Part shown: positions 2,418-58,277 of the stretch, piece by piece | How the letters are laid out: each line of letters opens with the position of its first letter | Position numbering within the stretch: position 1 is the first letter of the stretch | Sequence record: MT932213.1 | Source of the DNA: Escherichia phage VEc74 | Direction: 5' to 3' (one strand) | DNA: 64,000 nt | Position numbers and translations under genes: made by a program | Notes under the pieces: generated by a model | What the model saw: the letters and a program-made list of their open reading frames with translations, nothing else | What the model was told of the DNA's origin: nothing | Databases searched by the model: none

Positions 2418-2447
2418 ATTATACCACATCCTTGTGGTAAAGTAAAC
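2418..2447 (-). promoter_or_regulatory. T4-type early (sigma70) promoter
   Basis: minus-strand GTTTAC, 17-bp spacer, TGGTATAAT extended -10, 26 nt upstream of the 2392 start codon. Confidence 0.6.
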
Positions 2448-4264
2448 TACTGGCTCATCCATTCTTTGCGAAGGTCAGCATTATCTCCCATGAGCATTTC
2501 AAAAAGCTCTTTCCAGTTCTCAGGAAGTTTAACAACATCATATACTGGGTTTTGAATCATCTCACGATATTCAGATTTTTCCAAAGAGCCAAGTCCTTTA
2601 ATATAACGGATGCTATGTTTAGGTAGAGCATCTTTGGCACTCTCATATTCAGCGACTGTATAAAACCATTCTTGTTTTTTACCGACCTGAGCGATGATTA
2701 CAGGAGTTTTGACAAAGCGAATTCGTCCTTGCTCAAACAGTTCTGGCCAATTACTAAAAAATCCGAGCAGAGAAGGATAAATGCTTCCTAGACCATCATG
2801 GTCAGCATCAGTCATAATAGCAATATTATGATAATTCAAGTTTTCAGCTTTTTCACCAAGAACTAATCCAGTGATTGCGCAAATATCAAATAGTTCTTTG
2901 TTTTTAAGCATATCTGCATAAGACATACCCCAACTGTTGAGAACTTTACCACGCAATGGATAACCACCGTGAAGTTCTTTATCACGAACATCAATAAGAT
3001 ATCCGATAGCCGAATCACCCTCAGTCAAGAAAAGAGTAGTGTCAGCATCTTTACCACAAAGATTCGCTTTGATATGTTTATGAACCTTAGCTTTAGAAGC
3101 CTTTTTAGCTGCTTTAGTTTCTGCTGCTTTTTCTGCCGCCAATTTACGAGCCAAAGCAGCTTCAATAATCGGCATTAGAATTGCTTCATTATTTAGAATA
3201 GCACGTGAAATCTTTTTAGCATCAAGTTGAATATGACTACGAATTTCGCCAAATGGAGAAGTCAAACGCTCTTTAGTTTGAGAATCAAATCGCATGTTTT
3301 TCATATCACGGACAAACATAACGATAGTCAAACATTCTTTGACACGCGCTTTAGTCACATCAATTTTGAACTTACGTTTGATTTGTGGAATAAGGTCTTC
3401 ACAAATATCATCCATAACACAGTCAATATGATGGCCACCATTCTTAGTATGAATGTTATTCACATAAGTTAATTGACGAAAACCATCCGGTGAACGACCA
3501 ACCGCAATAGAACAATTTTCTTGTTCTTGAACAATAGCATGTTCATCATACTGTCGTGCATATTTCTTAAAATTACCCTGAACCTTTTTACCATTAAAGG
3601 TAAATTGAATATCAGGATAAACAACAGCAAGTGTCTGGAGACGATCTAATGTAATGTCAAGATAAACTTGGGACAGCTCATTAGTTTCAAATGACATAAA
3701 ATCAGGAATGAAAGTAACACGAGTTCCTTTCCATTTTCCAGGAATATCTTCCCATGATTTATTTTCCATGCCATTTGAACAACGAACTACAATATTATTT
3801 TGACCGTCGCCAGTTTCACCGACAAACATCACAGAAAAAATGTTTGTCAAACTAGAACCAACACCATTCATACCGCCAGTGACGCGCTCTTTATCATCAC
3901 CGAAGTTACCACCTGCTTTTGGAATAGTCCATGCGGCAACAGGACCAGGAATTTCTTCACCGGTAGGTGTTTTAACCATCGCCTGTGGAATACCACGACC
4001 GTTATCTTCAACTGTTACTTGATTGTTTTTAATAGTAACATTAATTTTATTTGCGAATTTAAACTTAGTACGAATACCTTCATCTACTGAGTTATCGATA
4101 ATTTCATCAATAAGCTTAACAAGACCAGGTACATACTGAACACTTTCCCATTTACCAAACAGAAAGCGCTCATGCATTTCATTAGCTGAAGAGCCAATGT
4201 ACATGCCGCTACGCTTTTTGATATGTTCAATATCGCTCAGAATTTTAATTTCATTCTTAATCAT
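2447..4264 (-). CDS. 39: DNA topoisomerase II large (GyrB-like ATPase) subunit, continuous gene 39+60 form
   Basis: 605-aa ORF with GHKL ATPase and TOPRIM-like motifs; uninterrupted, unlike the split 39/60 arrangement of T4; ATG is the second codon of the tracked ORF. Confidence 0.9.
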   Translation of the reverse strand: MIKNEIKILSDIEHIKKRSGMYIGSSANEMHERFLFGKWESVQYVPGLVKLIDEIIDNSVDEGIRTKFKFANKINVTIKNNQVTVEDNGRGIPQAMVKTPTGEEIPGPVAAWTIPKAGGNFGDDKERVTGGMNGVGSSLTNIFSVMFVGETGDGQNNIVVRCSNGMENKSWEDIPGKWKGTRVTFIPDFMSFETNELSQVYLDITLDRLQTLAVVYPDIQFTFNGKKVQGNFKKYARQYDEHAIVQEQENCSIAVGRSPDGFRQLTYVNNIHTKNGGHHIDCVMDDICEDLIPQIKRKFKIDVTKARVKECLTIVMFVRDMKNMRFDSQTKERLTSPFGEIRSHIQLDAKKISRAILNNEAILMPIIEAALARKLAAEKAAETKAAKKASKAKVHKHIKANLCGKDADTTLFLTEGDSAIGYLIDVRDKELHGGYPLRGKVLNSWGMSYADMLKNKELFDICAITGLVLGEKAENLNYHNIAIMTDADHDGLGSIYPSLLGFFSNWPELFEQGRIRFVKTPVIIAQVGKKQEWFYTVAEYESAKDALPKHSIRYIKGLGSLEKSEYREMIQNPVYDVVKLPENWKELFEMLMGDNADLRKEWMSQ

Positions 4265-4291
4265 CACTTATCCTCGTTTGGTTTCGGGAAT

Positions 4292-5152: not shown

Positions 5153-5572
5153 TTATTCCTTAAAATGTGCTTTCAACATCTGATACAAGGACCATGCCTG
5201 TTCATTATTTTCAATAGTAACTTTCATTACCGGGAATTCTGTGAAATCTTCTATTTGTTCTTGCTCTTCCTGCTCTTGTTCTTCAGCAGCCTGATATGGA
5301 TTTTCCACTTCATCAAAGAACCCAGCTTCGTTAGTAGAGAGCCAGATAAAGTTTTCGTCAAGAATATCACCGTGTTTTGCATATCCAATTGTGCCAGTAG
5401 ATGTCACAATTTTAGTAGGACGCCCAAGATAATCAGCATCTAAAATTTTAAAAGGTTCCATACCTAAACGTCGTGCGTAGATTCCGTTATCAGTATGGTC
5501 TTTAATAAAATTTTCTTGAGCTTGTTTATTTTTGAATTGATACCATTTATTAACTTCAAATTTAATAGCCAT
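5153..5572 (-). CDS. hypothetical acidic protein (goF position)
   Basis: 139-aa ORF with an [10 protein letters not shown] acidic tract. Confidence 0.45.
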
Positions 5573-5787
5573 TAATAAATTTCCTTCCAGTAAGTTGTGC
5601 CATCTTCAGTAATTTCACGAAATACACCGTAAATTGGTTGTTTATCACCAACCTTTTCATACACATAAACCGAAGTCAAGTGAGTAAACTTAATGGTGTG
5701 TTCCTTTTGAACTACTACCAAATCTGGATCAAATAATACATCTTCAAATTCGTCATTAGTGCAGTTCTGAACAATTTTACGTTTCAT
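5572..5787 (-). CDS. hypothetical protein (cef position, 71 aa)
   Basis: 71-aa ORF with ATGA-type overlap to the upstream gene. Confidence 0.4.
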
Positions 5788-5800
5788 TACAATTTCCTCA

Positions 5801-6070
5801 TTAATTGAACAGTGGAGCGATGCGTTTCAGAAGAGTAGCAGTACCTTTGGCAAATTTTACATCATGAAAAACAGTTTCTTCTTCTGTAACAACACGAACT
5901 TTAATGTTTTCACAATCCCAATTTTTACGAACAATCTTCAAAAGCTCCAGTAAATCTTTACATTCAGCAATATCGATAACACATCCACGAGAATCTTCCA
6001 TTATCGCACGATAACCGTAAGCCATACCATAATCGTTGAAAGATTGCTCGATGATAATTAAGTTTTCCAT
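5801..6070 (-). CDS. hypothetical protein
   Basis: ORF starting MENLIII at the ATG; the tracked upstream extension uses a TTG. Confidence 0.45.
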   Translation of the reverse strand: MENLIIIEQSFNDYGMAYGYRAIMEDSRGCVIDIAECKDLLELLKIVRKNWDCENIKVRVVTEEETVFHDVKFAKGTATLLKRIAPLFN

Positions 6071-6091
6071 TTTATTCTCCAAGTTGTTTTC

Positions 6092-6140
6092 TGCATCAGT
6101 AGTTGATATTGATATAGTACCATAATCAACTACTGATGCA
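6092..6140. repeat. perfect 16-bp inverted repeat (stem-loop) with a 17-nt loop
   Basis: TGCATCAGTAGTTGAT ... ATCAACTACTGATGCA; the loop carries a promoter -10-like TGGTACTATA. Confidence 0.7.
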
Positions 6141-6168
6141 TATAGTTTTATGAAAAAAATTTTAAACT

Positions 6169-6657
6169 TTATGCATAGAGAGCATTGCTATAGTGTTTAA
6201 TCCAGCTTTCAGGAATGACTTTATATGTTCCTAAAAATACCACATTGTACAGCTTAACGCCATCTTCTACCCATTGATCAGTAATGTATCCACACATAGC
6301 GCGAGTATAAACAGCCTTTCCATCATCTTTGATAAATTTAAATTCACAAGGAGCAATGAACTTGATAGCTTGACCGAGTTTCCACTTAAAGTCTACACCT
6401 ACATGCGAAGTATCAATCGTTTCAATTCCTTTAGCAGGAACAGCTTTCAAAAACGCAGGCTCAAGAAATTTCCATCGAACATAACCAAACTGAGGTTTAG
6501 ACTTTCCATCTTTAGGAATGATACGCACTTTTACTTCAGAATCTTCATCTTTAACACCATGTTTAAGCTGAATGCTTACAATTTCAACCAATTTTCCTGC
6601 TGCCTTAGAACGGGATTTATCAGATACACGAGCAATTTCACCGATATTAATATTCAT
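6169..6657 (-). CDS. motB: MotB-like protein
   Basis: 162-aa ORF at the motB position (T4 MotB is 162 aa). Confidence 0.5.
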   Translation of the reverse strand: MNINIGEIARVSDKSRSKAAGKLVEIVSIQLKHGVKDEDSEVKVRIIPKDGKSKPQFGYVRWKFLEPAFLKAVPAKGIETIDTSHVGVDFKWKLGQAIKFIAPCEFKFIKDDGKAVYTRAMCGYITDQWVEDGVKLYNVVFLGTYKVIPESWIKHYSNALYA

Positions 6658-6733
6658 AATTATCTCTCACTTGTTAAAAAGATTTTATACTCCACAGGAC
6701 CATTATACTCTGGTCCCAAGAGTTTGTAAACTA

Positions 6734-7273
6734 TTAATTCAAAATAGCTACCACTGCACTACGAGGTACTACGCTAAAATCACCTGCATGAACAACGTTC
6801 AGAAGTTCAACACCATCTTCAATCCACTGGTCTGTTACCCAACCACAGACCGAAACAAATGGGGTCTTGATAGCTACAGCACGAGTTAGAAGGTCAGTAG
6901 GATCGCATTCTTGAAAGAGGATGAACTCTGCTTCAAAAACTATAGTTTTAATTACTTCATCATTATCTAAACGGTGTACTCGAATCACGTAAGCTTTATT
7001 CTTATCATACCAGTTACTTTTTGAAAAGCTTTTAATCACAAACTCGCCTTCACCAAAAACATTAGTCAATGCTTTATAACCCAAATTTAGTTCAGTAGTT
7101 TTAATTTCAGTTTCAACCAGTTTGTAGGTTTTGCCGATTTCAATAGCGGTAGTCATAGTAGGTTCCTTAATTTCCAGCGGTTTAACAGGGCATACATAAG
7201 TGCTTACAACATCAAAATCAATCAGCTTAGCTACCGGATTTGGTGTGTATTCAGGATTATAATTAAATTTCAT
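6734..7273 (-). CDS. MotB-related paralog
   Basis: 179-aa ORF whose C-terminus (GWVTDQWIEDGVELLNVV) parallels that of the adjacent MotB-like protein (GYITDQWVEDGVKLYNVV). Confidence 0.45.
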   Translation of the reverse strand: MKFNYNPEYTPNPVAKLIDFDVVSTYVCPVKPLEIKEPTMTTAIEIGKTYKLVETEIKTTELNLGYKALTNVFGEGEFVIKSFSKSNWYDKNKAYVIRVHRLDNDEVIKTIVFEAEFILFQECDPTDLLTRAVAIKTPFVSVCGWVTDQWIEDGVELLNVVHAGDFSVVPRSAVVAILN

Positions 7274-7839: not shown

Positions 7840-8523
7840 TTATCGTTTTGTTGGAAGAGACAGAGGATCGCAATCTTCCTCTGACGGAGCATCTTCAAGA
7901 CCCATAGCGTATCGCAAAGCATACTTCATCATCAGGATGTCTTTCGCACAGTCATGAATAGAATCATGCGCAACGAATCCATCTAAAGTTCCTTTTGGAA
8001 GAGGACACGTGGTCATATCACGAACAAGCAGAAGTGCTTCAATTCTGGTACGAATATCACGCTGATTCCAGAATTTACATGGTTCTAACTTAAATGTGTC
8101 AAGCTCATTCTCAGAAACACCATTAAAACGTTGAATATCACGAATAAGATCGACTAAAATTGGAAAATCAAACGACATTCCACGGCACCAGCCTTGAGAT
8201 TTCCAAGGATCGATATTATGTGCATTGATGTAATCATTAAATTTTGCAATACCGTCAATAGTGCTTACATCTTCATCTGATGGTGCAATATTTTTTCTAG
8301 CTTCAGGTGATTGATTTTTCCACCATTCAATAGTGCTTTTAGTAAAAAGACGATGTCCTTTTTGGCTTTTTAAATCAAATTTGATTTTAATGCCACGTGA
8401 AACTAATTCATCAAACGTTTCAACGACTTCTGGATTAGGGTCAAAAGCAATTACAGCCAAATCAATAACAGCTGCTTTTTCACCACTTCCCATTGTTTCA
8501 AAATCTATAATAAAATCAAACAT
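7840..8523 (-). CDS. dexA: exonuclease A (DnaQ-like 3'-5' exonuclease)
   Basis: 227-aa ORF with an N-terminal DxE exonuclease motif (FIIDFETMG). Confidence 0.8.
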   Translation of the reverse strand: MFDFIIDFETMGSGEKAAVIDLAVIAFDPNPEVVETFDELVSRGIKIKFDLKSQKGHRLFTKSTIEWWKNQSPEARKNIAPSDEDVSTIDGIAKFNDYINAHNIDPWKSQGWCRGMSFDFPILVDLIRDIQRFNGVSENELDTFKLEPCKFWNQRDIRTRIEALLLVRDMTTCPLPKGTLDGFVAHDSIHDCAKDILMMKYALRYAMGLEDAPSEEDCDPLSLPTKR

Positions 8524-11400: not shown

Positions 11401-11437
11401 ATTTTTCTCACATCTTACGGACGGGTTAACTACTTAT

Positions 11438-11467
11438 ACTATAACATTTTTACTTTAACTTGTAAAC
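11438..11467 (-). promoter_or_regulatory. T4-type early promoter
   Basis: GTTTAC, 17 bp, TATAGT, with an A/T-rich upstream element. Confidence 0.5.
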
Positions 11468-24148: not shown

Positions 24149-24182
24149 TTCATTCTCCAAATCCGTATCAGTTGATAGTTGT

Positions 24183-24212
24183 ATAGTACCATGGAAGAAC
24201 AGTCTTGTAAAC
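24183..24212 (-). promoter_or_regulatory. T4-type early promoter (part of a PeSL-like unit)
   Basis: GTTTAC, 17 bp, TGGTACTAT, plus an A/T-rich upstream element. Confidence 0.55.
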
Positions 24213-24295
24213 AGTTTTGTGAAAAATTTTTTAGGGAATTCTAAAGGTCCAGAATCATCTGTTTTTCATAAGTATAGATTTATATTACTTGTATG

Positions 24296-49641: not shown

Positions 49642-50610
49642 TTATTTCAGAAGAGTAACCTCAGCAATTTCTTCCCAACCGTTTTTGTCGGTCATAATAA
49701 AGTCAGCAAGATAAAGAGCAGTACGCAGTGAAACATTGCGTAAACGGTTAACATTGACTTTCATCCATGATAATGCTTTATAAGTTTCTTCATCAGAAAG
49801 ACCGCGCTTTTGCATCATGTCGGTTGAAAGAATAACATCTTCAACCCTGACCATAATTTCTTCATTAGTGTGAACACCCAAATCCAAATAAACTGAGCGG
49901 GACACTAATGCTTGTAAATGTGGAGCAAGTTTAGTACCACGGTCTAATTCGCGGTCAATATCAACGTTTGTGATAAAAACAATCGTTCCTTTAAATTCAA
50001 ACTCACGGTCAATGCCTTTTTCTTCTAAGTAAGAAGATGCAGTGCTCCAGCAGACTTTACGGGTCTCTCCAGTGTCCAGAGCAGCTTTCAGAAGATTAAG
50101 AATGTCCATATCAGAGAAAACATCCACATCATCAATCAAAAGGACAGAATTCTCTTCACGATTATTCCAAAGCTGCTCATAAAGACCGATACCCGAGATT
50201 TTACCATTGATGCTTTTATATTCAATGTATCCAATATCATTTGCTTTATTCAAAGCTTTATCTAAAGAATACGTTTTACCAATACCTGCTGCTCCCGAGA
50301 TAATTAATGAACGAATGTTTCCGTTAATAATACCATTCGTCATCATTCCCATAACATTAAATCTTTTATTAATGCGGGTTTTCATATCTTCATATGATTC
50401 TTTAACTTCTTCAACTTTTACACCATCATATGAAATGTCTGATTTGTAAACCCAAACACCGCGACGTTTACCATCAATTTCAACAAAAACTTTACCATCT
50501 CCTTGTGCATCTACCGGAGCATTATCTGGGAACCATTCGCCTAAGAGCTCAAAAGTTCCAGAGATTTCTTTACCGAAGTAGATACCCTTATTGATAGTTA
50601 CAGTTTTCAT
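49642..50610 (-). CDS. AAA+/P-loop ATPase
   Basis: Walker A GAAGIGKT and Walker B VLLIDDVD; start at the ATG (MKTVTI), the tracked start is a TTG. Confidence 0.6.
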   Translation of the reverse strand: MKTVTINKGIYFGKEISGTFELLGEWFPDNAPVDAQGDGKVFVEIDGKRRGVWVYKSDISYDGVKVEEVKESYEDMKTRINKRFNVMGMMTNGIINGNIRSLIISGAAGIGKTYSLDKALNKANDIGYIEYKSINGKISGIGLYEQLWNNREENSVLLIDDVDVFSDMDILNLLKAALDTGETRKVCWSTASSYLEEKGIDREFEFKGTIVFITNVDIDRELDRGTKLAPHLQALVSRSVYLDLGVHTNEEIMVRVEDVILSTDMMQKRGLSDEETYKALSWMKVNVNRLRNVSLRTALYLADFIMTDKNGWEEIAEVTLLK

Positions 50611-50644
50611 TTTATTCTCCAAATCTGTATCAGTTGATAGTTGT

Positions 50645-50674
50645 ATAGTACCATAAAGCTTTATGCTTGTAAAC
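50645..50674 (-). promoter_or_regulatory. T4-type early promoter (part of a PeSL-like unit)
   Basis: GTTTAC, 17 bp, TGGTACTAT. Confidence 0.55.
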
Positions 50675-50699
50675 AGTTTTGTGAAAAATTTTTGAAATA

Positions 50700-50722
50700 A
50701 AAAAAGGAGCCCGAAGGCTCCC
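50700..50722 (-). terminator. rho-independent terminator
   Basis: GGAGCC-UUCG-GGCUCC hairpin followed by a run of 7 U. Confidence 0.6.
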
Positions 50723-53419: not shown

Positions 53420-53449
53420 ACTATACCATAACCTTGCCAACTTGTAAAC
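53420..53449 (-). promoter_or_regulatory. T4-type early promoter
   Basis: GTTTAC, 17 bp, TGGTATAGT. Confidence 0.5.
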
Positions 53450-58247: not shown

Positions 58248-58277
58248 ATTATACCACAGTCAAGAGGAAAAGTAAAC
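58248..58277 (-). promoter_or_regulatory. T4-type early promoter
   Basis: GTTTAC, 17 bp, TGGTATAAT upstream of regB. Confidence 0.55.

Follow-up and report, generated by a model that had tools for sequence, protein, structure and literature searches.

A putative early promoter overprinted by an RNA hairpin downstream of motB in Escherichia phage VEc74

Promoter early stem-loop elements (PeSLs) were defined in the phages RB49 and phi1 as modules that combine an A/T-rich tract with a sigma-70 promoter, a stem-loop and a ribosome site, in which the stem-loop is located in the interval separating the -35 from the -10 box or overlaps one of them. In the case of one PeSL stem-loop, expression of a downstream lacZ gene fell to the same degree as with rrnB T1, and one complete element gave strong expression (Arbiol et al. 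2010, PMC2839356). The class was extended to the phage pair PST and T4 with the consensus TTTACW-N17-TAYWAT and with degraded copies located beside insertions and deletions (Comeau et al. 2014, PMC4122927). A second described system is formed by the leaders of the T4 genes e, soc, 49 and I-TevI, which fold into hairpins that sequester the ribosome site and contain an internal promoter (PMC3014915, section 29). The element described here occupies positions 6092-6140 of a 64,000-nucleotide (nt) stretch of Escherichia phage VEc74 (record MT932213.1; the whole stretch is referred to as the window), a T-even phage of the genus Tequatrovirus with its early genes on the minus strand, and is located between motB and an open reading frame (ORF) of 89 amino acids (aa). 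It is most readily explained, with a probability of about 0.6, as a PeSL-type composite in which a sigma-70 early promoter for the ORF, cef and goF has been overprinted by an RNA hairpin that would act as a transcript boundary in read-through RNA. The parts of the element and its two flanking genes are listed in the direction of early transcription.

6169-6657, minus strand: motB, 162 aa (phrog_1671, E = 6e-78), stop codon at 6171-6169
6143-6168, minus strand: A/T-rich tract with a variable T-run, equivalent of the UP-element region, identical at 18 of 20 positions to the cassette of phage F2
6137-6142 (6142-6137), minus strand: weakened -35 TATGCA, exactly 17 nt upstream of TACTAT and overlapping the first four bases of the 5' arm
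6125-6140, minus strand: 5' arm of the hairpin, which fills the promoter spacer and contains G6139, a window-specific A-to-G change
6108-6124, minus strand: loop, with the TGn of an extended -10 at 6122-6120, the -10 TACTAT at 6119-6114 and an inner helix of 6122-6118 with 6114-6110
6092-6107, minus strand: 3' arm, the ancestral initial transcribed sequence of the cassette, containing G6094, the second window-specific A-to-G change
6081-6091, minus strand: A/C-rich single-stranded linker GAAAACAACTT between hairpin and ribosome site, not U-rich
6068-6080, minus strand: Shine-Dalgarno GGAG (6080-6077) and ATG (6070-6068) of the 89-aa ORF
5801-6070, minus strand: the 89-aa ORF, function not known (phrog_3720, E = 9e-46), ATG at 6070-6068

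Like the PeSLs, the element is intergenic and extends from the motB stop codon through the A/T tract (6168-6143) to the GGAG and ATG of the next ORF, and its stable stem-loop overlaps the promoter (-27.8 kcal/mol in the window and -20.2 kcal/mol in the T4-type version). Similar cassettes are repeated in early regions (four more copies of TGGTACTATA, and a leader shared with phage F2 at 40 of 41 positions, or 39 of 41 for the window), and the element is located beside gene gains and losses, the ORF being deleted in T4 and a motB paralogue lying upstream in RB51-type genomes, with the cassette unchanged. The TGn and TACTAT boxes are perfect for the local family and correctly spaced at 17 nt, while the -35 TATGCA agrees with the consensus at only three of six positions. 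The VEc74 stem-loop differs from those of the PeSLs in that it spans the region from -35 to +16 and encloses the -10 with the leader serving as 3' arm, whereas the five published subclasses place the stem-loop wholly upstream of the start site; in addition its stem is A/T-rich rather than polyG/polyC and the -35 is degenerate. Judged from its sequence, the element has the structure of a PeSL with the exception of a consensus -35, and its geometry is that of a variant.

The leaders of T4 e, soc, 49 and I-TevI share with the element a promoter within the 5' part of the hairpin and an internally started RNA that is devoid of the 5' arm (in VEc74 with a predicted start at A6107). However, theirs is a late promoter, TATAAATA, which provides temporal control, whereas the VEc74 loop holds TGGTACTAT of the early sigma-70 type, and their Shine-Dalgarno sequence or AUG is included in the helix, whereas in VEc74 the main stem extends no further than 6092 and the GGAG begins at 6080. 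The 'UP/-35/TGn/-10' early promoters of T4 (Hinton 2010, PMC2988021) are matched in the A/T tract, TGn, TACTAT, leader and GGAG; the difference lies in the -35, which is TATGCA (TATACA in T4) and not GTTTAC, and the promoter would need to function by its TGn and -10 with the aid of the upstream tract. At the same site in vB_EcoM_SA21RB (OL960580.1) a rho-independent terminator has been annotated on the basis of WebGeSTer, and the position of a stable hairpin right after a stop codon on the transcribed strand is indeed reminiscent of one, but the VEc74 hairpin lacks a U-tract (tail GAAAACAAC), has an A/T-rich stem and a large loop, and fails the consensus scan. An intrinsic terminator was rejected, since no terminator-like site was found at 6092-6140 on either strand and the tail GAAAACAACUU is without a U-tract; the same scan found none from the motB promoter (6702-6730) down to the hairpin.

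The perfect 16-bp inverted repeat with a 17-nt loop described in the initial annotation is confirmed, TGCATCAGTAGTTGAT at 6092-6107 having its exact reverse complement at 6125-6140. No longer perfect inverted repeat with a loop of 3-40 nt exists in the window, where the runner-up measures 11 bp, and its length exceeds chance expectation in that 100 first-order Markov simulations of the window reached a maximum of 14 bp, attained in three of them. The folding energy, which had been proposed as a check, is -27.8 kcal/mol for the minus-strand RNA of the hairpin (z = -7.65), and none of 200 shuffled sequences was equally stable. Inside the loop an additional 5-bp inner helix (UGGUA/UAUCA) is formed, and the complete helix consists of 16 + 5 bp with a 2x2 internal loop between them. 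The element as a whole is a 49-bp near-palindrome with 23-nt arms that are 87% complementary and a 3-nt centre.

The promoter parts are located within this palindrome. The sequence TGGTACTATA occurs five times in the window, always on the minus strand, where 0.09 copies are expected, and each of the other four copies is correctly spaced behind GTTTAC, which bears out the earlier statement that the loop contains a -10 variant of several early promoters. The accompanying statement that no properly spaced -35 lies outside the stem needs to be modified, as TATGCA is situated exactly 17 nt upstream of TACTAT, within the 5' end of the stem; this hexamer is a poor match, agreeing with TTGACA at three of six positions compared with four of six for the TATACA of T4 and about 490 relatives. 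In the element TGG supplies the extended -10. A position weight matrix (PWM) trained on 19 canonical early promoters in the window gives sub-scores of 6.6 bits for the A/T tract (canonical mean 1.5) and 12.5 bits for the TGn/-10 loop segment (canonical mean 9.7). The whole element scores 22.2 bits in the window and 26.5 bits in the T4-type version, both inside the canonical range (leave-one-out scores of 17-42 bits, excluding two low outliers of 0.4 and 1.0), and the window element ranks 20th among 127,844 positions, immediately behind the training set. From the spacing, the transcription start is predicted at A6107, 7 nt past the -10 and the first base of the 3' arm. The embedded promoter is probably weakened in VEc74, because the -35 retains only three of six positions although the A/T tract, TGn and -10 are kept, and it probably still fires at a reduced level.

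The origin of the two arms is indicated by homologous cassettes. When aligned with their flanks, the five TGGTACTATA sites share the cassette aaaaatttttcacaaaact-GTTTACa-N14-TGGTACTATA-caactATCAACT..GATACAGa..TTGGAGAATaAAATG. An intact cassette of phage F2, located beside tRNA-Arg, aligns to the element over 97 nt without a gap, and its identities to the T4-type copy are distributed as follows.

Upstream A/T tract: 18 of 20 identical
-35 heptamer (GTTTACA against ATATACA): 5 of 7, and 4 of 7 for the ATATGCA of the window
Spacer: 5 of 14 identical
TGG plus -10: 10 of 10 identical
Discriminator: 2 of 5 identical
Leader through ATG: 40 of 41 identical, and 39 of 41 for the window

The positions at which the element departs from intact cassettes fall only in the spacer (14 nt), the discriminator (5 nt) and the -35 (two or three bases), which indicates that the 3' arm and ribosome site are the ancestral leader and that the 5' arm is the promoter spacer plus the weakened -35. 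The insertion of a palindrome is rejected by the gap-free 97-nt alignment to intact cassettes. A promoter disrupted by palindrome insertion, the closest of the three options offered by the initial annotation, is accordingly correct with regard to a promoter homologue and incorrect with regard to an insertion. Nor does disruption describe the arrangement, since the promoter-in-hairpin layout recurs at the orthologous site of other genera, mostly with an intact GTTTAC, and a conserved design is indicated. Paralogues that share the leader and have another spacer do not fold (24188, 50650 and the F2 paralogue; z-scores of +0.86, +0.8 and -0.5 among them), and the hairpin is not a by-product of the cassette.

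A 61-nt query retrieved the element from 491 phage records, in which it is nearly invariant; not one of them matches the window completely, and nearly all depart from it at exactly two positions. The comparison with other T-even phages suggested initially thus finds the hairpin kept in about 500 relatives including T4, with a 13-bp stem. In T4 itself (AF158101, 6583-6631) the stem ends are TACA...TACA and the 13-bp stem is followed by A.C and C.A mismatches, and the T4-type hairpin folds with -20.2 kcal/mol (z = -5.27). Nine metagenome contigs also contain the element, seven of T4 type and two with GATATAG in the 3' arm; a metagenome scan with the 17-nt loop yielded nine true T-even matches, about 74 chance matches and no new stem variants, and a search of IMG/VR with MotB peptides and the stem pattern returned the same five contigs only. 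Each of the two A-to-G changes of the window repairs one of the flanking mismatches (A.C and C.A), lengthening the stem from 13 to 16 bp, and neither change was found in the 491 phage records or the nine metagenome contigs. Together they add 6.8 kcal/mol (-20.2 to -27.0), and the left one also costs one -35 match. The chance of two random substitutions in 61 nt repairing both mismatches is about 2-5e-4. The T4 state is ancestral on both arms, because the paralogous cassettes have GATACAG as their leader and TACATC is what is left of GTTTACATC, and the changes of the window are thus derived. The lengthening of the stem at the expense of the -35 suggests that the hairpin matters more than promoter strength in VEc74. 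The element is constant while its neighbours vary, with motB or a motB-like paralogue upstream and the full ORF or a deleted remnant downstream. The module is of a known type, and its copy in VEc74 is a uniquely strengthened allele.

The region just upstream of cef was compared in ten further lineages, which show the following arrangements.

Dhakavirus (JS98, CLB_P2): TATACA, 17 nt, TGaTACTAT; stem GGTAGGGTAGTG / TATTACCCTATC
Dhakavirus (PSD9): TATACA, 17 nt, TGaTACTAT; stem GGGTAGTAGT / ACTATTACCC, register shifted
Mosigvirus (RB69): TGTACA, 17 nt, TGaTACTAT; stem GGTCTAT / ATAGACC, marginal (z = -1.6)
Kanagawavirus (Kosakonia 305): full GTTTAC; stem GGTGTAGG / CCTACACC
Winklervirus (X20): full GTTTAC; stem GGTGTAGGAG / CTCCTACACC
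Karamvirus (EnA02) and Moonvirus (KM16): full GTTTAC; stem AGGGCTAT / ATAGCCCT
Klebsiella phage kv_tblp2, unclassified: full GTTTAC; stem GGTAGGAGCAT / ATGTTCCTACC
Gaprivervirus (VR20, UPEC07): no -10; stem GATAGGGTA / GCCCTATC, a hairpin without promoter (z = -4.3)
Roskildevirus (IT22): GTGTAC; short 6-bp stem, not significant (z = -0.9)
Jiaodavirus (JD18): full GTTTAC without an enclosing hairpin

A clear hairpin (z <= -2.8) is found in seven of the ten lineages, Moonvirus KM16 having a stem identical to that of EnA02 and no z-score of its own. Six of the seven overlap the -10 of a sigma-70 promoter, with z-scores of -2.8 to -4.7, and in Gaprivervirus the hairpin stands alone. When the window and the T4-type version are included, nine of the 12 orthologous sequences folded reach the same threshold, the exceptions being RB69, IT22 and JD18. 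The promoter spacer pairs with its own leader around the -10 in Dhaka-, Mosig-, Kanagawa-, Winkler-, Karam- and Moonvirus and in kv_tblp2. The stem sequences differ among genera and measure 8-12 bp outside Tequatrovirus, which shows that a hairpin has been re-invented at this position. The sense (early-strand) fold is more stable than its antisense counterpart in ten of 11 lineages by virtue of G.U pairs (sign test, about 0.006), and the structure selected is therefore an early-strand RNA rather than a cruciform in the DNA, an operator bound by a protein or a terminator of antisense transcripts. On the 3' side of the hairpin all orthologues have an A/C-rich linker (AACAAAT and similar) followed by the ribosome site, and none has a U-tract. 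The RB69 orthologue coincides with the predicted early promoter Pe:6863 (hidden Markov model score 33.2; PMC1524935, Additional file 3), and no terminator was called at that place by TransTerm (PMC1524935). Many of the 'terminators' that TransTerm calls in RB43 fall within predicted early promoters, as for example terminator 11434-11454 in promoter 11413-11463 (PMC1524935, Additional files 3 and 6), which is the PeSL layout in independent annotations.

It is proposed that the promoter fills an intergenic space of about 100 nt in which only the spacer and the early transcribed bases would be free to vary, and that a hairpin selected at this site would have been written into the spacer and the initial transcribed region with the constrained TGn/-10 left in the loop. 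Because the 3' arm lies in the leader and the 5' arm in the promoter spacer, only RNA arriving from upstream carries both arms. Read-through RNA from the motB promoter (6702-6730) would fold into a hairpin of -20 to -28 kcal/mol, whereas RNA started at the embedded promoter (predicted A6107) would contain the 3' arm alone and stay open. A transcript-boundary role is favoured, in which the hairpin would attenuate or insulate upstream transcription, as was measured for one RB49 PeSL stem-loop, and may additionally block exonucleolytic decay across the motB/ORF junction, and transcription would restart at the predicted A6107. Several points weigh against this explanation. The stem is not followed by a U-tract and the terminator scan is negative, and intrinsic termination would thus be non-canonical. 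The PeSL terminator assay was carried out with a G/C-rich stem-loop from a different phage group, unlike the A/T-rich stem of VEc74 (PMC2839356), and the figure of the PST/T4 PeSLs places the stem-loops upstream of the promoter and not around the -10 (PMC4122927). The TATGCA -35 of the window fails a consensus promoter scan, and the embedded promoter may for this reason be silent in VEc74. The near-invariance of the element inside Tequatrovirus means that there is no covariation within the genus, and the structural argument is based on the comparison between genera, in which the stems have differing registers and are not scorable column by column. The MotB paper and the T4 omics paper are silent on the motB-cef intergenic region; a T4 differential RNA sequencing preprint lists 150 phage start sites.

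Pairing between spacer and leader is also seen at other early promoters of the window, where folding of the region from -32 to +32 around all GTTTAC-type promoters produced many hairpins that enclose the -10. Each -35/spacer of the 19 promoters was matched against its own leader of 40 nt as well as against those of the 18 remaining promoters. The mean duplex energy is -11.45 kcal/mol with the own leader and -8.14 kcal/mol with the leaders of other promoters, and the own-pair mean was reached by none of 20,000 permutations (p < 5e-5). Duplexes at or below -16 kcal/mol are formed by 6/19 own and 5/342 other pairs, and at or below -19 kcal/mol by 4/19 and 0/342, respectively; the element at 6092-6140 has the strongest duplex with -26.9 kcal/mol. 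Among the canonical GTTTAC-type promoters some 40% possess a spacer that can pair with the leader of the same promoter (strongly in 6-8 of 19), and their read-through RNA would fold with the -10 in the loop; these are the promoters with -10 starts at 58253, 53425, 49211, 18719, 7809, 6707, 61955 and 54237 on the minus strand. The 3' arm includes the ribosome site at 58253, 49211 and 7809 and does not at 53425 and 18719. A tentative and rather doubtful extension is that a spacer complementary to its own leader constitutes a general, selected design of T-even early promoters. If so, read-through RNA would always be structurally distinct from locally started RNA, small early genes would be translated or protected according to the origin of the transcript, the principle of e, soc and I-TevI would extend from a few late-regulated genes to the early regulon, and the 16-bp version of the window would serve as a naturally strengthened allele for testing it.

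Among the other explanations for the VEc74 copy, an origin-dependent translational gate is ranked second because the ribosome site lies outside the stem and the change in accessibility is modest, and it is considered unlikely. In such a gate the read-through hairpin would nucleate an extended helix, formed by pairing of the upstream U-run with GGAGAAUAAAAU, that hides the ribosome site and start codon of the ORF, while locally started RNA would be open, making it the early-promoter counterpart of the device in T4 e, soc, 49 and I-TevI, a mechanism established there with late promoters (PMC3014915, section 29). The 131-nt minimum-energy fold extends the stem by U-run/GGAG and AAGUUU/AAACUU helices, but these flanking helices are composed of weak A-U and G-U pairs and the U-run varies between 5 and 13 nt among relatives. 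The predicted unpaired probability of GGAG is 0.05-0.22 in read-through RNA and 0.24-0.45 in locally started RNA and is lower in the former in all six genomes, with a negligible difference in one of them (L004, 0.22 vs 0.24); the shifts are small, however, and the ribosome site is mostly paired in both predicted RNAs. A ribosome site within the 3' arm, as at the window promoters 58253, 49211 and 7809, would be in keeping with a gate, but the main stem at 6092-6140 ends 11 nt short of GGAG and the ribosome site of the orthologues is likewise outside the stem. Of the translational regulator put forward by the initial annotation there remains a modestly lower predicted accessibility of GGAG in read-through RNA, set against the 11 nt that separate GGAG from the stem. 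It is also improbable that the element is the relic of a dead promoter which now functions only as an RNA hairpin for stability or processing, whether as a block to 3' exonucleases for motB mRNA after RegB/RNase E leader cleavage, as a 5' stabiliser of the downstream RNA or as an RNase III site. The further degradation of the -35 in VEc74 while the stem was strengthened and the Gaprivervirus hairpin kept without any -10 are in line with a relic, as is the GGAG with an A-rich run 11 nt past the stem, which resembles RegB targets (PMC3014915). Yet Tequatro-, Dhaka- and Mosigvirus all keep TACTAT with its TGn and, at a spacing of 17 nt, a T(A/G)TACA -35, and since these boxes and their spacing are conserved while the intervening sequence changes, the promoter appears to be under selection. 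Moreover, six other lineages have a full GTTTAC promoter at the site (Kanagawa-, Winkler-, Karam-, Moon- and Jiaodavirus and kv_tblp2), and the minus strand has no second canonical early promoter in the interval from motB to gene 39. With regard to RNase III, taken to require cleavage in vivo and a largely uninterrupted RNA duplex of some 20 bp at least, the 16 + 5 bp helix of the window is borderline and near the required length, but the T4-type helix measures 13 + 5 bp and those of other genera 8-12 bp. As a conserved function the processing site suggested initially is unsupported, since the stems measure 13 bp in nearly all relatives and 8-12 bp elsewhere and are thus mostly far below two helical turns and too short for the enzyme.

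Two further explanations do not involve an early-strand RNA function. The near-complete 49-bp palindrome over the promoter core would suit a DNA-level element such as a cruciform, a symmetric operator at which a dimeric protein shuts off the promoter, or a plus-strand antisense terminator, for which the plus-strand stem followed by UAUAGUUUUAU and the antisense tail AUUUUUAUAAUUU of Gaprivervirus could be quoted. This is very unlikely, as the stems are wholly different between genera and hence offer no common protein site, the sense fold is favoured over the antisense fold by G.U pairs in ten of 11 lineages, the central mismatches and 17-nt loop disfavour cruciform extrusion, and the plus-strand terminator scan is negative at the site. 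T4 is the classic system for quasipalindrome-templated mutation, and the perfect 16-bp form is unique to VEc74, which would agree with a functionless product of chance or of a mutational process such as templated quasipalindrome correction. This origin is very unlikely, given that about 500 genomes retain a nearly invariant 13-bp core between diverging flanks, that independent hairpins are present at the same site in other genera and that own spacer/leader pairing exceeds cross-promoter pairing throughout the window (p < 5e-5). A single templated palindrome correction was rejected, since it predicts TGTA...TACA or TACA...TGTA and TGCA...TGCA is observed. Other identities were likewise rejected. 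A MotA middle promoter requires a box of the form (a/t)(a/t)TGCTT(t/c)A centred at -30 and 11-13 nt from the -10, whereas TGCATCA (TACATCA in the T4 type) is 14 nt from TACTAT, and Table 1 of Hinton (2010, PMC2988021) contains no T4 middle promoter near 6.6 kb. An oriA or origin iteron was dismissed as the 'ori type 2 repeat' of Kha5h falls inside motB and oriA maps near soc (PMC3016281). An Rfam scan of 5700-6800 returned only mir-217 with 29-31 bits against a gathering score of 70, a generic hairpin resemblance which is taken as spurious.

If the PeSL-type reading is correct, the perfect palindrome becomes an annotatable regulatory module and two mis-annotations are corrected, the 'rho-independent terminator' of one GenBank record and 'no promoter here'. 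Selection of the stem-loop of PeSL-type cassettes as early-strand RNA was taken for granted, without a test, in the published descriptions and is shown here by comparison between genera. VEc74 would also provide a natural allele about 7 kcal/mol stronger than that of T4, which is useful for measuring the effect of the hairpin on motB and cef. The consequence is small outside the circle of T4 transcription specialists; most worth following are the between-genus evidence for an early-strand RNA hairpin and the promoter-wide complementarity of spacer and leader.

In the wider neighbourhood the nearest records are 96-97% identical across 5750-6700, and the following features surround the element.

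7840-8523, minus strand: dexA
6702-6730, minus strand: early promoter of motB, canonical (TTTACA, 17 nt, TATAAT), 11 of 12 consensus matches, fitting the GTTTAC pattern
5572-5787, minus strand: cef, downstream of the 89-aa ORF
2447-4267, minus strand: fused gp39, early gene

The 89-aa ORF is internally deleted in T4-type genomes, which lack about 200 nt of it (approximately 5856-6063 of the window compared with 3010-3065 of the T4 sequence L002), and the T4 'intergenic' cef-motB spacer therefore holds the remnant of a dead gene. A short direct repeat (ATGGAAAAyTT ... GTAAAATTyGC) is present at the deletion junction and is suggestive of slippage or a microhomology deletion rather than of excision mediated by the cassette. 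In RB51-type genomes (RB51 itself, L008, 782-888; GiZh, L009; L075 and L078) the upstream gene is a motB-like paralogue of 139 aa, and a piece of the motB 3' end (tgcataaagttt) has been retained behind its stop codon, consistent with recombination at the cassette edge. The T-run at 6150-6156 (minus strand) comprises 5 to 13 T in close relatives, and the adjoining 49 nt are nearly invariant.

Further hairpins and cassettes of related design were noted elsewhere. In RB69 (L019, 3375-3434), between the motB-like gene and motB.2, a strong hairpin of the type that contains the ribosome site is formed by the spacer TTCTCCTCTGGTT and AACCAGAGGAGAA with -26.1 kcal/mol. At 50642-50675 of the window the -35 and -10 regions are mutually complementary (19-nt arms, 79%), a geometry unlike that of the hairpin at 6092-6140. 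The cef-upstream promoter of JD18 (L115, 340-400) shares the -35/spacer string GTTTACTTTGCCACAAGGATGTGGTA with the window promoters 2423 and 46243, which indicates that promoter cassettes are common to different genera and positions. The gp39 topoisomerase large subunit (2447-4267) is encoded by a single 606-aa ORF, unlike the split genes 39 and 60 of T4, and the genome is therefore one without the T4 gene 60/mobA insertion. The minus-strand cassettes at 24150-24240 and 50610-50700 are near-identical over a stretch of about 90 nt that begins with the A/T tract and runs through GGAGAAT(a/g)AAATGAAAA, and could possibly act as substrates for homologous exchange between distant loci.

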